Virus record (IMG/VR): IMGVR_UViG_2880372215_000012
Reading direction: 5' to 3' (one strand)
Source of the DNA: a virus
Taxonomy: Duplodnaviria; Heunggongvirae; Uroviricota; Caudoviricetes
Length of the DNA stretch: 38,479 nucleotides
Part shown: piece after piece, positions 24,658 through 30,472 of the stretch
Layout: each line of letters opens with the position of its first letter
Numbering within the stretch: position 1 is the stretch's first letter
Translations under genes and position numbers: made by a program
Notes under the pieces: model-generated
What the model saw: the letters and a program-made list of their open reading frames with translations, nothing else
Told to the model about the DNA's origin: nothing
Database searches by the model: none

Positions 24658-25381
24658 CAAAAAACAAATAACCATTAATAATCAATAAGATGCAAAGATG
24701 ATGGTGGCCGATAAAAATGCAAAAACTAGCCTTTTTCCGCGACGCTCCCGCCCCGTGGCAGGCCACCCCACCGGGAGGAGCCGTCAGCCTGAAAGCCATG
24801 ACGAACGTCTGATACAGCCCTTGCATGAATGGCATCGGGATAATCCAGAAAGGAATAGCATCGACCCACAAGAATCTGTGTGAGTGTCCTGTTTCTTCCA
24901 CCCCCGCACAGGACTGGCGAGCATGAGGGACAAACCCGCGAATCATTAGCGCGGTAAAAACCCGGTGTGCATCGTTTTTGATTATTCCCGCACACTCGCG
25001 CAGAAGGAGTTCCCCGTCGGGCTACGGTCATGGTTAATGCGGGAATACAGCGACGATACAGCGCATGATGTGTCAGGCTTGAATACCTTTATCCGTTAAA
25101 AGGGATATCAGTTAAGTTATCCCGTGTAGGGTATAAGCCATTATCAAAGCCACTCTGTAGGGAGTGGCTTTTGTAATGGCAATAAAAAAGCCCCGCGAAT
25201 GCGAGGCTAAATCCAGGTATTTTTAATGACTGGCTCTTATCTCAACGCAGCCCCTTACCGCGCGCCAGATGCTCAATATCAAGCATCAGCAATGAGATGT
25301 TTAACCATGATTCACTCCAGAAGTGAGCACCACCCTGTCTACAGAGCCAGATGTGAAGGATGATGAGTAAAATTATCGCTA

Positions 25382-25849
25382 TCATCGAAGGCATTGCGTC
25401 CTGATGTATTCCTGAAGCGTTCTCAGTGCTGTTTGGTCGCGGATAATTCCGTCCCGGATACCGAGAACGTTTCGTCCAGCAACTGGAGAGAGTTCGACGG
25501 TGGCATCATTGCCCATGCCGGAGGCGCTGGAGGTTTCGTCTGAGGATGGCACAGGGCATTTTCCTTTGACGAACACCCGACCACCATTATCAAGCTTGCG
25601 CCGAAGAGCATCATTTTTAGCTTTCGCATCAGCTAACTCCTTCGTGTATTTAGCATCGAGTGCATCAGCAGCACGCTGGCGCTGCTGCATGTCAGTAATG
25701 GTGGCGGTCGCCTGCTTCAGCTCACTGACTTTTTTATCACGCTGTTCTTTATAGGCGATGGCGTTATCACGGTAATGATTAACCGCCCATGACTGGCAGA
25801 CGATGATGCAGATAACCAGAGCGGAGATAATCGCGGTTACTCTGCTCAT
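25382..25849 (-). CDS. Rz: Spanin inner-membrane subunit Rz
   Basis: [34 protein letters not shown].. matches lambda Rz. Confidence 0.85.
25423..25629 (-). CDS. Rz1: Spanin outer-membrane lipoprotein Rz1, embedded in the +1 frame of Rz
   Basis: [21 protein letters not shown].. with lipobox VVGC and a Pro-rich segment, nested entirely within Rz as in lambda. Confidence 0.7.
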
Positions 25850-26343
25850 TGTTGCCCCCACAAACAGACTTCACGCTCAATCTCGCGGCGAGTCATCAGC
25901 CCTTTCCATTGCTTACCGCCAGCGTATGTCCAGCGCCGTAGCTGATCACATGCGCCTTTGATATCACCCTGGTTTATTTTGCGAAGAAGCGTCGATGTTC
26001 TGAAATTACCAGCGCCCACGTTGTAAACGAACGAGTAAAGAGCGCCGCGCGTTGTTTCCGGTATATCGACTTTGATGTACGGGTTAATTTGTCTGGCGAC
26101 CGTGGCAAGGTCTTTATTCAGGAGGGCTTTGCATTCTGCTTCGGTATACGTTTTACCGGGAATGATGTCTTTTCCGGTGTGTCCGTGACATACAGTCCAT
26201 ACGCCAACGATATCTTCGTATGGTATGTAGCTGACACCTTCCAGGCCATCGTCACCACTCGGACCAGTGATGAGCACAGACGCTATGGCAGCAGCCCCAC
26301 CACCAATAGCAGCAGCAACAGCCTTGCGTAATGATGGCGACAT
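25846..26343 (-). CDS. R: SAR endolysin (phage 21 R-type lysozyme with N-terminal signal-arrest-release helix)
   Basis: [28 protein letters not shown].. Gly/Ala-rich SAR segment followed by a lysozyme domain (..[12 protein letters not shown]..). Confidence 0.9.
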
Positions 26344-26558
26344 TATTCACCTCTCGCAGCCTTACGCTTATCTTCTTTAATCTTGAAATAAAGGTTTGTC
26401 AGATACGTCAGCAAGCCAAACACCAAGCTACCCAATACGCCTATTGCCACCCACTGGGATGGGGAGACTTTGTCCAGCAACTGCAGTAGCCAGTATCCCG
26501 TCCCCACCGCTGACGTGGTGTATGACACACCTGTTGTTATTTTTTCCATCTGGTACAT
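26343..26558 (-). CDS. S: Holin, phage 21 S-type (pinholin-like), with possible dual starts at 26558 and 26549
   Basis: ..[49 protein letters not shown]; two in-frame Met codons three codons apart (MYQMEKI); directly precedes R. Confidence 0.85.
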
Positions 26559-27423
26559 ACCCCGTCTCCCGTTATCCGGAAGCTGACAACAATAAAAAGC
26601 CACCAGTTAATTCCTGATGGCCCTGATGCATAAACGTCATAATACCTGACTGTTATGATTGACAATAATGATAATGTTTATATAGAAAGGTTCCCGATGT
26701 GTGTTACATATCATTTCTCCACGGGGAATATCCCCACGCCAGCGCAGACTCTTTTACCCGTTCTCTTCTGCGCTGGCTCTTTTTTATTATGCTGCTGCAT
26801 TTACCTCTGGCACCATGCTTTCTATCTCAACACAATACGTGGTACTTCTTGTAACCAATATCATAACGATTAATCGACATAGAATTTCTCCCGTGTACAG
26901 GAACAGAGTTAAAAAGCCGGAACCGGAATCAAATCACAGGATGACCATCTGCCAGTGGCAGGTCATAAAAAAAAGGCCGCGCCATGCGCAGCCAGAACTC
27001 ACAAGGAAAATGATAGAAGGAAATAACATTAGTGATGTACGCATGGCGCCTCCCGCTAAGTTCTGCAATGATCAAACAGAACTCGCTACGTGCCCTTAAA
27101 ACTCGATCATTTAGCCCCTCCAAGGAGGATTCACCATGCGGTTGATTTTTTAATAAACAGTAAACAAAAAAGTCAAGAATTATTCATTCTGTTCTTTCAT
27201 CATCGGCCACAGCAATACCACAATGCCGCAGACCAGAGCGCCATCAGTCAGTACCAACATTATCCTGCTGGTGAAATCCATCATCACCATCACTAAAAGC
27301 AGGATCACAACAGCAAGCAGACACAGTTTATAAAACAATGTTCAGGAAACGCATTCAGCATGCCTAAGGTTCTATTCCTACGAATAGCCAACTTGCAACT
27401 TAAAATATTATTTATGCAGCCAA

Positions 27424-28182
27424 TTAAATTCTGGTCCTTACAATATCAACCTGAAGATTCTTATCTTGTGCTGATTGATAAATGACAAACCTTTTACTAC
27501 CTGCATTGAAAGAAGTAGACAAAACCAGACAATTATCATAACGAGCAAGAACATAATACCAACCATCATTATAATTAATCATTTCATATTCTTTCTTAAA
27601 CTGTGGTTTGTAATATCCTGTCAGAAATGAAAAAAGCCAGAAATATGCCACAAAAGCAATCATCACAATCTCAAAAAAATGTTTTTTTATAAATGGCTTA
27701 TCATAGAAGCATGATACCGATAAAAATCGCCCATAAGATCTTATCGAAATTGTAACCGCCAGCGCAATCGCTGCTGACAGTAGCAAAAGAGGTACCTGAA
27801 TCTTCTGTCTCAATATAGAAAACTCAATAATTGCCGGCACAAACAATAATTCCACAGCAAAATAAAGGCGAAATACATTTAGCTCTTGCATAGAATGTTT
27901 TCTTTTCACTGCGAAAAAGAATACAACACCAATACCCCAACCGATAAGAAATATAGCAATGACGATAACTGCAAAAAATAAACTTCTGGCAACATCATCA
28001 ACACCTGCACCTACAATCCACCATGGGAAGCCGTAGTAAAAAGAAGTACCCCATCCATAGAAATAAGCACTCCCCCATCCAAGGCATCCCATGTAGGCAA
28101 TAAAAAGTGAAGAACTCCTGAGCAGCGCACCATCCTTCATAACCACCCCAATACAAGATGATAACATTGGCTTACAACTCAT
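27424..28182 (-). CDS. Hypothetical polytopic membrane protein (moron between Q and the lysis cassette)
   Basis: 252-aa ORF, strongly hydrophobic and aromatic-rich with several predicted TM segments; AT-rich; no family recognised. The start may be the internal Met at 28140. Confidence 0.5.
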   Translation of the reverse strand: MSCKPMLSSCIGVVMKDGALLRSSSLFIAYMGCLGWGSAYFYGWGTSFYYGFPWWIVGAGVDDVARSLFFAVIVIAIFLIGWGIGVVFFFAVKRKHSMQELNVFRLYFAVELLFVPAIIEFSILRQKIQVPLLLLSAAIALAVTISIRSYGRFLSVSCFYDKPFIKKHFFEIVMIAFVAYFWLFSFLTGYYKPQFKKEYEMINYNDGWYYVLARYDNCLVLSTSFNAGSKRFVIYQSAQDKNLQVDIVRTRI

Positions 28183-28282
28183 AACAAAAGCAATTCAATG
28201 CCGTCAAGAGGTTACAGGCTAAAAAAACTCTATTACATAGCAGCCAGCATGTTTACCGTACAAGTACAACTCAGGGCATAAA

Positions 28283-28312
28283 AAAACCCACTCGGCAGCG
28301 GGTTTATACATT
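28283..28312 (-). terminator. Candidate tR'-like terminator downstream of the Q gene
   Basis: Minus strand: AAACCC-loop-GGGTTT followed by a T-run, about 50-70 bp below the Q stop; a promoter-like AT-rich segment lies between. Confidence 0.35.
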
Positions 28313-28350
28313 TTTTACAACATACCAAATTTGCATGAAGTATATGGCTT

Positions 28351-29040
28351 TTAATCCAGTTTTGCAATATTTTGCTGTAAAAATGCTGCCTTTTGTTTTG
28401 AACGTGTTCTCGTCACAAGCAATAAAGCATCACTATCAAGCTGTAGAAAAATGTGCTTCATTGCAACCCAGCGTTCAGTAAATGTCTCGGACCAGTTTTT
28501 TGTTGTCACTCCCACCAATGATGCCAGTGTCTGGTATTCATAGGCCTCACGCCCTGCAAGTTCGCTCTTCACATCCTGTGCAGCCAGCCAGATTAACGTC
28601 TTCAGGCGATCCAGTGTCTTACCTGCAATTTTTCTGTTACTTAACAAATCTTTAAACTCGCTCCATGCCCATTGCGTTATGGTGACCTGATGCCCCCATC
28701 GAACGCTTTCGCTGTAACACCAAAGCAACCATGCTTTCTGATGTTCATCGAGAGACAAAACCGCGCGGCGCCATGAAGAGGTTGAGAATTCAACCGGGCT
28801 GACCAAAGCAATGGATGAACCTTTTGCGTACGACTGCTTACCGGAAGTCGGCGTATTATCCAGCGTAATCATCTTGCCAGTTACCACATCCAGAATGCGC
28901 GGCTTCTTTCGTTTGTATGTACCAGTATCAAATTGTGCATGCTCCTGCCAGGCTTCGAGCTGGCCTTTCGTTGCTCCGTTCAAGTCAGCAGTAGCTGCCA
29001 TAAGTTGCTCACGAACATACTGTAAATATTGGGTATTCAT
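28351..29040 (-). CDS. Putative late-gene antiterminator Q (non-lambda Q type, about 229 aa)
   Basis: Called mainly by synteny (downstream of the nin genes, upstream of the late promoter region and lysis genes) and size; start placed at MNTQYLQYVREQ (29040). Confidence 0.55.
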   Translation of the reverse strand: MNTQYLQYVREQLMAATADLNGATKGQLEAWQEHAQFDTGTYKRKKPRILDVVTGKMITLDNTPTSGKQSYAKGSSIALVSPVEFSTSSWRRAVLSLDEHQKAWLLWCYSESVRWGHQVTITQWAWSEFKDLLSNRKIAGKTLDRLKTLIWLAAQDVKSELAGREAYEYQTLASLVGVTTKNWSETFTERWVAMKHIFLQLDSDALLLVTRTRSKQKAAFLQQNIAKLD

Positions 29041-29512
29041 GCAGTAAATCCTTTCTATATTTTGGCATAATTCTTCAACATTCGGTAATCGTTCAAAACC
29101 GAATCGGGGAAACGACATAAGCACAGGAGCCCCAGCGACAGCGAAGGAGTTCTGATATATAAGACTCAGACATCATTCATTCCCCGGTTCTCCAATATCT
29201 GTTTCACTCATCATCCATAACTACCTGTAATTGCCCCCCTTTTTTTGTAACAGTTCTTATATTGCTATATAGAATAGCCATTACTAATGCATTTAAATTT
29301 AATAAAATAAAATTATAAAAAACATAAAACACCACGCAAACACACTTAATAAAAACACCGTTACATTAAAAGATAATAAAAACCGCAATAAAAAACGAAT
29401 AAATCAATTGTCTCACGCAATTATAAAACATCATATTGATTACGCACCTTGCATTACAAACTCATGTATGTAAAATACGCGCACCATTCAAAAAAAAGGA
29501 AGACAATAACAT

Positions 29513-30472
29513 ATGAAAAAAAGTGTCATCGCTGGCGTCTTTATTGCTCTGTCATTTACCACGTGTTCAGCTATCGCGAACAGCCTTGCATTATCATTAG
29601 CAAATGATGATGCAGGGAAGTTTCAACCAATACTTAATGATATTTATGGCAATAAACATGAAAACAGAGATGATTACTCACAAGGCTTATTTCTGGGATA
29701 TAGCCACGATATCTCAGACTCGAGCCAATTATCTCTCCATATTGCGCAAGATATTTACTCTCCATCAGGCAGTAATAAAAGACACAACACAGCTGTAACT
29801 GGAGACAGAGCTTTTAGTGCATACACTCACACTGGTATTGAATGGAACTCCCTTGCGAATGACTGGATTCGCTATCGATTAGGTACTGACATAGGTGTTG
29901 TTGGCCCCGACGCAGGCGGTCAGAAAGTACAAAATAAAGCTCATGAGATTATTGGGGCAGAAAAATATCATGCATGGGATGATCAAATAGAGAATCGCTA
30001 CGGTTATACTGTAAAAGGGATGCTATCCATGACACCAAGTATGGATATTTTAGGTGCTAATGTTGGATTATACCCTGAAGTTTCTGCTGTTACTGGAAAC
30101 TTATTTCAATATGTAGCATATGGCGCAACCATTGCCATTGGTAATGATAAAACCTTCAATTCGGATAATGGCTTTGGTCTGCTGGCTCCCCGTGGTTTAA
30201 TGCATATGTCCGATACAAGCGGATTCAAATACAAGATTTTTGCAGGTATGGAAAGACGAGATGTCAATCGCAACTATACTCTCGAAGGAAAAACAATACA
30301 GACGAAACAAACAACAGTATCGCTAAACAAAACTGTTGATGAATATCAAGTTGGCGCAACAATTGGGTATGCACCTGTAGCCTTCACACTAGCATTTAAT
30401 AAAGTAACATCAGAATTCAAGACAGGGGATGACTATTCATTTATAAATGGAGCAATCACCTTCTTTTTTTAA
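29513..30472 (+). CDS. lpxR: Outer-membrane beta-barrel protein, probably LpxR-family lipid A 3'-O-deacylase; opposite-strand moron between ninI and Q
   Basis: 319 aa; signal peptide MKKSVIAGVFIALSFTTCSAIA; C-terminal ..GAITFFF aromatic terminus typical of beta-barrels; length and remembered motifs fit LpxR. RBS AAGGAAG upstream; about 300 bp of roughly 75 percent AT upstream. Confidence 0.55.
   Translation: MKKSVIAGVFIALSFTTCSAIANSLALSLANDDAGKFQPILNDIYGNKHENRDDYSQGLFLGYSHDISDSSQLSLHIAQDIYSPSGSNKRHNTAVTGDRAFSAYTHTGIEWNSLANDWIRYRLGTDIGVVGPDAGGQKVQNKAHEIIGAEKYHAWDDQIENRYGYTVKGMLSMTPSMDILGANVGLYPEVSAVTGNLFQYVAYGATIAIGNDKTFNSDNGFGLLAPRGLMHMSDTSGFKYKIFAGMERRDVNRNYTLEGKTIQTKQTTVSLNKTVDEYQVGATIGYAPVAFTLAFNKVTSEFKTGDDYSFINGAITFFF

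Follow-up and report, generated by a model that had tools for sequence, protein, structure and literature searches.

A TfpB-family membrane protein, a DUF3927 peptide and small RNA genes between Q and S of a lambdoid prophage: a plausible mosaic moron cassette

What does a lambdoid prophage carry between its late antiterminator gene Q and its holin gene S, the classic site for moron genes, and what might that cargo do for the lysogen? We ask this question of positions 26,559 to 28,350 of a 38,479-nucleotide stretch of DNA, the IMG/VR virus record IMGVR_UViG_2880372215_000012 (Caudoviricetes), which as a whole we call the window. An earlier note on this DNA took the interval for a moron site and described its contents as unassigned cargo, namely a polytopic membrane protein of no recognised family and a short hydrophobic open reading frame (ORF). 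Our analysis indicates that the cargo can in fact be assigned: the long protein belongs to PF27470 (TfpB), the short one to PF13064 (DUF3927), and a small RNA (sRNA), PasD1, had been overlooked. We propose that the Q-to-S interval would be a moron cassette assembled as a mosaic from four parts, each mobile on its own, namely these three and a probable Esr41-like RNA on the opposite strand, in which the TfpB-like protein would serve as an envelope adaptor. To this reading as a whole we assign a probability of roughly 55%. Its parts differ in strength. We are highly confident of the identities and the anatomy of the parts; the adaptor mechanism is a tentative and doubtful suggestion. The identities, the homologies, the anatomy and the expression of identical copies in enteropathogenic E. 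coli are shown here; what we say of the biochemical roles of the two proteins, of topology, of promoters and of co-transcription, we infer.

The family of the long protein is the natural starting point. Against TfpB of Moraxella bovis, BLASTP aligns residues 9-236 at 27% identity (E 5e-23) and hhalign returns a probability of 99.6% (E 5.7e-25), and because the BLASTP match runs over the full length and the profile probability is this high, membership of the TfpB family is solid on sequence grounds. PF27470 is moreover precomputed for the identical protein and for all its homologues, and the contig annotation uses the name TfpB. The protein has no match in our local copies of Pfam-A, NCBIfam and PADLOC, the Pfam-A copy apparently lacking the recent PF27470 model, and in PHROGs it matches phrog_1521, with families of unknown function as the only hits. 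The likeness to Moraxella TfpB extends to similar length and to a common architecture, as judged from alignments and an AlphaFold2 (AF2) model, of an N-terminal aromatic and glycine motif (AY.YGWG..YG.PWW), a helical membrane core and a C-terminal beta domain, the helical and C-terminal regions aligning throughout. Homologues fall into 103 clusters at E <= 1e-3 (best 1e-157), and a profile search over 1.84 billion representatives gives 72 relatives only, among them proteins of 20-29% identity in Neisseria, Avibacterium, Gallibacterium, Actinobacillus and Pasteurella. The earlier note had weighed a match to a well-characterised family with a housekeeping role; a family is indeed found, but it is no such family, because TfpB is itself uncharacterised. 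In the literature, the name "TfpB" is mostly used for other things, such as an unrelated PilB-like ATPase of Acinetobacter.

Where does the gene begin? Both ORFs singled out earlier do lie on the minus strand where they had been placed, but the extents of both require correction. The long frame, described as 252 amino acids (aa; 27424..28182), is real and conserved. Nearly all of its full-length homologues are 236-238 aa long, however, and their alignment begins at Met15 of the 252-aa frame, which is preceded by the Shine-Dalgarno-like element GGGGTGG. Further upstream lies a candidate promoter (Table 1) that is kept in front of homologues on the Citrobacter rodentium chromosome and on a plasmid of enterotoxigenic Escherichia coli (ETEC), both of which have neither Q nor pR', so that the promoter block is conserved across three unrelated contexts. 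The first ATG of the 252-aa frame falls within the -10 element of this block. Because the homologues align from Met15 and the first ATG lies in a conserved -10, the gene most likely encodes 238 aa, and the starts that would give 252 or 247 aa were discarded. The RefSeq protein WP_001302581.1 is identical to the long frame from residue 10.

What kind of protein would this be? With only close homologues as input, AF2 gave a model with a predicted local distance difference test score (pLDDT) of 58; when distant homologues were added the pLDDT rose to 83.8, with a predicted template-modelling score of 0.77. The latter model has helices at 4-36, 47-79, 84-111, 116-137 and 155-181, followed by a five-strand, SH3-like C-terminal domain of roughly 55 residues (184-235). 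Averaged over 37 homologues, the net charge of the N-terminus is +0.7 and those of the successive loops are -1.5, +2.8, +0.2 and +2.6, which by the positive-inside rule would place the N-terminus in the cytoplasm and, after five transmembrane helices, the beta domain in the periplasm. The earlier note had called for profile and structure-based searches of this protein. The former lead to TfpB; the latter, run with the AF2 model, find no significant match in the PDB or BFVD and hence no solved structure to compare with. Across the family, it is aromatic or small residues that are conserved, the motif given above sitting at the predicted periplasmic end of helix 1, and no catalytic-type polar residue is conserved in the family alignment. 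This pattern would argue for binding over catalysis, and it is because of the missing catalytic-type residues that we propose a non-enzymatic adaptor.

The founder genes of the family suggest one candidate for a bound partner. In our genome scan, four species of Moraxella proved to have a homologue, namely M. bovis, M. lacunata, M. equi and M. oblonga, and in each of these the gene lies inside or beside the inversion locus of the type IVa pilin. In M. bovis the homologue (261 aa) sits between two inverted pilin C-terminal segments next to piv, and in M. lacunata it has piv with a pilin fragment on one side and an entire type IVa pilin gene on the other. This arrangement we take to be the classical tfpB of the pilin inversion region. 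Thus the TfpB-like protein could be an accessory factor of type IV pili or pseudopilins, which binds, within the inner membrane, the hydrophobic N-terminal helix of pilin-like proteins, such as E. coli PpdD/HCP, the bundle-forming pilus (BFP) or the pseudopilins of type II secretion systems, and so modulates pilus assembly or secretion of the lysogen. Distant homologues occur in Neisseriaceae and Pasteurellaceae, families that are piliated. The functionally analogous TfpY/FimB are likewise membrane proteins with the N-terminus inside and a periplasmic C-terminal domain, and the TfpY/TfpZ/FimB proteins of Pseudomonas and Dichelobacter resemble ours in being membrane proteins of about 240 aa whose N-terminus is short and cytoplasmic and in which no enzymatic domain can be recognised (PMC11841053). 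We nevertheless consider this explanation unlikely. Compared by published description, the TfpY architecture, with three N-terminal helices and a mixed beta-sheet with a beta-alpha-beta unit, a helix and a three-stranded sheet (PMC11841053), is not matched by our model of five long helices and an all-beta five-strand domain. Linkage to type IV pilins is confined to the Moraxella loci and is thus a property of the founder genes and not of the Pfam model: no pilin neighbour was seen at any inspected locus outside Moraxella, and the window copy, a member of an enterobacterial subfamily of prophages, virulence plasmids and islands, stands behind a phage antiterminator with no pilin or piv gene around it. 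Even in Moraxella, the gene is intact (261 aa) in M. bovis and cut to about 195 aa in M. lacunata (195 aa; inspected locus L027, 4001..4588) and M. equi (L031, 4001..4594), which suggests that intact TfpB may be dispensable in the latter two.

If not pilins, what do the neighbours of the enterobacterial and other homologues suggest? In a Yersinia prophage, the tfpB-like gene directly follows a Q of a different family (PF06530). In enteropathogenic E. coli (EPEC) E2348/69 one copy follows a third type of antiterminator in prophage PP4, without lpxR, and another, in PP2, stands beside the same lpxR-ylcG-Q82 block as in the window. On ETEC plasmids the gene lies about 0.9 kb from the heat-labile enterotoxin genes eltAB (L009-L012, 1487..4214); on the C. 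rodentium chromosome it is divergent from lpxR, 178 bp away with no Q between (L013/L014, 2364..4217); in Salmonella it adjoins an sseJ-like gene; and in Glaesserella parasuis its neighbour encodes a toxin of the cytolethal distending type that resembles CdtB, as judged by eye from the N-terminal sequence (L035, 4001..6355). Our plasmid collection contributes 156 records, 106 of them from Shigella, including the virulence plasmid pWR501 of S. flexneri M90T. In Pasteurellaceae and Neisseriaceae the gene is solitary amid housekeeping genes, sometimes in several copies per genome. This diversity of contexts indicates, on a comparison of gene neighbourhoods, that the tfpB-like gene is an independently mobile unit that is enriched on virulence-associated elements. 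We also observe that toxin genes adjoin it in elements as unrelated as those bearing eltAB in ETEC and the CdtB-like gene in G. parasuis.

Small membrane proteins at moron sites often act in superinfection exclusion. A prophage membrane protein at such a site, expressed in the lysogen (see below) and present as several paralogues per genome in Mannheimia and Aggregatibacter, could accordingly protect the lysogen by stopping the entry of phage DNA at the inner membrane, perhaps in concert with the DUF3927 peptide. Such a role in exclusion or phage defence seems to us improbable. Neither protein has a PADLOC match at E <= 0.1, many homologues are found not in defence islands but beside toxins and effectors, on virulence plasmids and chromosomal islands, and the presumed Salmonella homologue, STM1630, which is macrophage-induced and listed among the genes co-regulated with Salmonella pathogenicity island 2 (SPI-2), points to host adaptation.

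The same neighbourhoods raise the question of whether the protein is a partner of the outer-membrane lipid A deacylase LpxR in a cassette for lipid A remodelling, where it might for example control the export or activity of LpxR. The two genes, lpxR and the tfpB-like one, diverge and are 1.3 kb apart both in the window and in EPEC PP2, in C. rodentium they are direct divergent neighbours, as described above, and both regions are low in GC content. The pairing is not general, however. There is no lpxR within the 3.5-5 kb inspected in EPEC PP4, the ETEC plasmids, the Yersinia prophage or Salmonella, and where the two genes are adjacent this may reflect common prophage ancestry. We therefore regard a dedicated partnership with LpxR as very unlikely.

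Is the gene expressed in the lysogen, as our reading of a moron with an envelope adaptor would have it? EPEC carries two identical copies, for which published RNA sequencing (RNA-seq) reports BaseMean values of 147 and 226, the reads not being assignable between the two, against 3-6 for Q, holin and lysin. In uninduced lysogens the tfpB-like copies are thus expressed at 25-60 times the levels of Q and the lysis genes at their sides, which is the behaviour expected of a moron. In published EPEC data from RIL-seq (ligation and sequencing of interacting RNAs), the 5' part of the identical gene E2348C_0686 is chimeric with the sRNA PasA (57 fragments, p 0.02). The window copy contains a PasA-complementary motif, AUGAUGUUGCC, at about 27990..28010 (minus strand) inside the tfpB-like coding sequence. 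Homologues of PasA and PasC themselves were sought in the window and none was found, the only resemblance being a shared terminator tail. From gene order, the Salmonella homologue would be STM1630, a neighbour of sseJ and steB. STM1630 has its own mapped promoter, which is inactivated by single-nucleotide polymorphisms in sequence type 313 (ST313).

The short ORF has been assigned to the second named family of the interval. Described earlier as 36 codons (27180..27290), its frame is open from a TTG at 27338 and comprises 52 codons. PF13064 matches residues 7-50 at 53.0 bits against a cut-off of 25 (E 3e-14), phrog_1470, labelled "TciB-like", matches with E 2.5e-17, and the annotated gene is 159 bp long in RefSeq as well as in the phage 434 record. 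Among the homologues the additional hydrophobic segment at the N-terminus is kept and occurs as two sequence variants, MFYKLCLLAVVILLLV and MTVKLRLAVAALLLFL; this shows that the protein sequence is under selection and confirms the longer gene. The 52-aa product is a predicted two-segment membrane hairpin. The name TciB comes from phage P1, where tciB lies between tciA and tciC and proved non-essential in a CRISPR interference screen. The window peptide fits the same PF13064 and phrog_1470 models, but its gene is flanked neither by the TerB-like tciA nor by tciC, and a literature search on "TciB" gave nothing relevant. That DUF3927 and the tfpB-like gene form an obligate pair was considered and rejected, DUF3927 being absent beside homologues in Salmonella, Citrobacter, ETEC, Yersinia, Neisseria and Avibacterium.

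A hairpin of holin-like size, encoded with the tfpB-like gene immediately upstream of a cassette for a pinholin and a signal-anchor-release (SAR) endolysin, brings lysis timing to mind: one or both proteins, transcribed just before S-R-Rz, could be antiholin-like or interact with the pinholin. We find this highly improbable. Homologues of the tfpB-like gene are common where lysis genes are absent, uninduced lysogens express the gene at the multiple of the holin level given above, and DUF3927 is tied through its PHROG name to P1 tciB, with the position and dispensability just described.

PasD1 is the most informative element of the interval. All 173 nucleotides of the window segment, read 27139..26967, are identical to PasD1 of EPEC E2348/69 (NC_011601, 1060260..1060432; coordinates from Pearl Mizrahi et al. 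2021). The seed UGUGAG lies at 27003..26998 and is followed by a terminator stem (26993..26975) and U run. In EPEC, PasD1 is validated by Northern blot, depends on Hfq, binds many mRNAs in RIL-seq, and corresponds to EcOnc13 of enterohaemorrhagic E. coli (EHEC) (PMC8550237). The window thus shares with PasD1/PasD2 of E2348/69 the seed, the terminator and the synteny with Q and holin, and shows no sequence difference from PasD1. The Rfam family STnc100 (RF02076) matches 26964..27169 (minus strand) at 37.7 bits, below its gathering score of 47, in a stretch that ends in the strong terminator. A 2026 preprint treats PasD sRNAs as diverged relatives of STnc100, flanked by Q, LpxR and holin; this published synteny is matched in the window, where Q, LpxR and the holin/lysozyme operon are nearby. 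The transcribed 'STnc100_1' at 902843 (plus strand) of strain EDL933 probably corresponds to the window PasD1. Two annotated proteins overlap these RNA genes: RefSeq WP_012578864.1 (26701..27099, plus strand) covers parts of PasD1 and of the Esr41-like candidate, and the 'putative membrane protein' CPT_434_70 of phage 434 (L001, 3079..3267, minus strand) overlaps PasD1. Neither has any family match, and in view of the sRNA overlap we rejected both as real genes; they are probably annotation artefacts.

Convergent with PasD1, the plus strand appears to encode a further RNA. The candidate has a consensus -35 (TTGACA, 26659..26664), a -10 (TATAGA, 26681..26686) and a transcript of about 100 nt (about 26693..26790) with three hairpins, the last an 11-bp terminator stem, and a fold z-score of -6.4. 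Its Rfam match to Esr41 is weak, at 32.3 bits (E 4e-4) against a gathering score of 102. With Esr41 of the EHEC island SpLE1 it shares the 5' CAUUUCUCCAYGGGG hairpin region and the terminator, and it adjoins a PasD-type sRNA, as published for Esr41 hits; it differs in its low score and in a larger terminator loop. In EPEC, the overlapping antisense 'ORF' E2348C_1013 has a BaseMean of 2064 and falls 7.5-fold in an hfq mutant (log2 fold change -2.9). An Hfq-dependent sRNA is thus probable. Esr41 (EcOnc14) is reported to repress cirA, chuA and bfr and to confer resistance to colicins Ia and Ib.

The segment 26560..26855, next to the holin gene, contains remnants of the 3' end of a NanS-p-type (SASA-family) esterase gene. 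The match to the yjhS/NanS-p genes of Shiga toxin (Stx) phages comprises two short stretches of about 85% identity, which jointly cover about a third of 26560..26966. At this very position, between PasD and holin, phages 434 and 2B8 have an esterase gene of the SASA family (NanS-p-like), and so the window prophage, which keeps the 3' remnant only, appears to have lost the gene by deletion. In 2B8 the esterase gene is itself cut short by the insertion of a mobile element.

The boundaries of the interval agree with the moron site that had been proposed. The prophage is lambdoid, with its late genes on the minus strand; Q belongs to PF06323 and is followed by a pR'-like promoter, whose position fits that of a lambdoid late promoter, and by tR', and a P21-type holin and a lysozyme gene stand at the other end (Table 1). 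RefSeq calls the Q gene 'bacteriophage antitermination protein Q', and the phage 434 record describes it as Q82-like. The traits of a lambdoid moron are present as well: GC content drops to 0.33-0.39 across the cargo and the tfpB-like gene, from 0.49-0.52 in Q and the lysis genes, the predicted promoter block is conserved, and the identical EPEC copies are expressed in the lysogen. As the earlier note had also said, no tRNA gene was found, here in 25000..30000, and neither the ORF list nor the annotation of the window contains an stx gene.

Table 1. Features of the Q-to-S interval and its surroundings, in window coordinates
Feature	Position	Strand	Evidence
TfpB-family inner-membrane protein gene, most likely 238 aa	27424..28140 (frame open to 28182 = 252 aa)	-	PF27470, phrog_1521, homologue alignment
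Candidate promoter of the tfpB-like gene	28178..28207	-	-35 TTGACG 28207..28202, 18-nt spacer with TG, -10 TATGAG 28183..28178
DUF3927 / 'TciB-like' small membrane protein gene, 52 aa, TTG start	27180..27338	-	PF13064, phrog_1470, RefSeq WP_000499454.1
PasD1 sRNA (EcOnc13 homologue, STnc100 relative)	26967..27139	-	173/173 identical to E2348/69 PasD1
Putative -35 (TTGACT) of the promoter of PasD1, immediately behind the stop codon of DUF3927	27171..27176	-	read from alignment
Candidate sRNA with promoter, convergent with PasD1, Esr41-like	26659..26790	+	Rfam, fold z-score, EPEC RNA-seq
Q82-type late antiterminator gene	28351..29040 (RefSeq start; open frame to 29124)	-	PF06323, E 1.7e-91
pR'-like late promoter, TTGCAA / 17 nt / TATACT, overlapping the Q 3' end	28339..28367	-	consensus scan only
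tR' intrinsic terminator, 9-bp stem and T run	28276..28305 (strong terminator 28305..28284)	-	terminator scan; the phage 434 record has a terminator here too
Hairpin resembling a terminator, immediately upstream of the holin gene	26596..26624	-	terminator scan; phage 434 annotates one at the equivalent place
Class II (P21-type) holin gene S, downstream boundary of the interval	26343..26558 (open frame to 26603)	-	PF04971, E 2e-32; RefSeq class II holin
Phage lysozyme gene, after the holin gene	25846..26343	-	family model scan
lpxR (lipid A deacylase), a moron of low GC content that lies upstream of ylcG-Q, in divergent orientation to the tfpB-like gene	29513..30472	+	

How widespread is this arrangement? 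The 2.1 kb from 26300 to 28400 are 100% identical to many E. coli O157:H7 chromosomes, and at least 80% of this 2.1-kb interval is found in 561 of 5,426 complete E. coli genomes, about a tenth, including O157:H7 strains and EPEC E2348/69. Phage 434 is 99% identical at the nucleotide level over 26856..28400, the Q-proximal 1.5 kb that make up 74% of the interval; its proteins CPT_434_68/69 and the E. coli RefSeq proteins WP_001302581.1 and WP_000499454.1 are identical or nearly so to those of the window, and Q, membrane protein, DUF3927 and PasD follow one another in the same order. Elsewhere in the prophage, RefSeq and the phage 434 record annotate a truncated second antiterminator gene beside lpxR, and the Rfam ALIL pseudoknot, the frameshift element of IS3-family transposases, matches 34785..34901 (minus strand) at 121 bits, which indicates an insertion sequence within the prophage.

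How could such a cassette operate? In the lysogen, the late transcript from pR' would end at tR', and the cargo would be transcribed from its own promoters, the DUF3927 hairpin peptide probably together with the tfpB-like gene. After induction, RNA polymerase modified by Q would read across the interval into S-R-Rz. PasD1, with its own promoter and terminator, would act as an Hfq-dependent base-pairing sRNA that targets CUCACA-containing mRNAs through its UGUGAG seed, and the Esr41-like RNA would probably be expressed from the opposite strand. The TfpB-like protein would bind a membrane-embedded or periplasmic partner and thereby change a surface property of the lysogen, as a form of lysogenic conversion or host adaptation.

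Several points weigh against this picture. Two observations only underlie the adaptor idea, namely that catalytic residues are not conserved and what the fold looks like, and no experiment in the literature assigns a function to proteins of the TfpB or DUF3927 families. The promoter and start codon of the tfpB-like gene are predictions, and the EPEC reads carry the ambiguity between copies mentioned above. In Salmonella, deletion of STM1630 caused no defect of replication in macrophages; the deletion was hypermotile in one screen, but a later study returned to this phenotype with deletions made free of markers, and its authors suspected that polar effects lay behind some of that screen's phenotypes. 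DUF3927, moreover, accompanies the tfpB-like gene in this module only, and as a clue to function its TciB name is a P1 annotation made by similarity.

Every part of the cassette is already in public databases, PasD1 is a published sRNA, and the interval is not a new kind of system. What is useful is the link to TfpB, the finding that the family is spread in association with pathogens, the corrected gene boundaries, and the set of sRNAs that the interval holds. The annotation is corrected at both start codons and at two probably spurious ORFs that lie over sRNA genes. The largest gene of the cassette has relatives that adjoin the genes for heat-labile (LT) toxin, sseJ and lpxR, and that occur also on Shigella virulence plasmids, and the link to TfpB supplies testable partners for its product, namely pilins or pseudopilins, LpxR, and phage entry. 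More generally, though as a doubtful proposal that leans toward the unlikely, the TfpB family may be an unrecognised group of mobile, pathogen-associated envelope adaptors whose fold is absent from the PDB, with a role in pili in Moraxella, and which in enterobacteria would have been co-opted for a surface structure or a trait of host interaction, possibly one that involves pili or pseudopilins or LpxR-dependent remodelling of lipid A.

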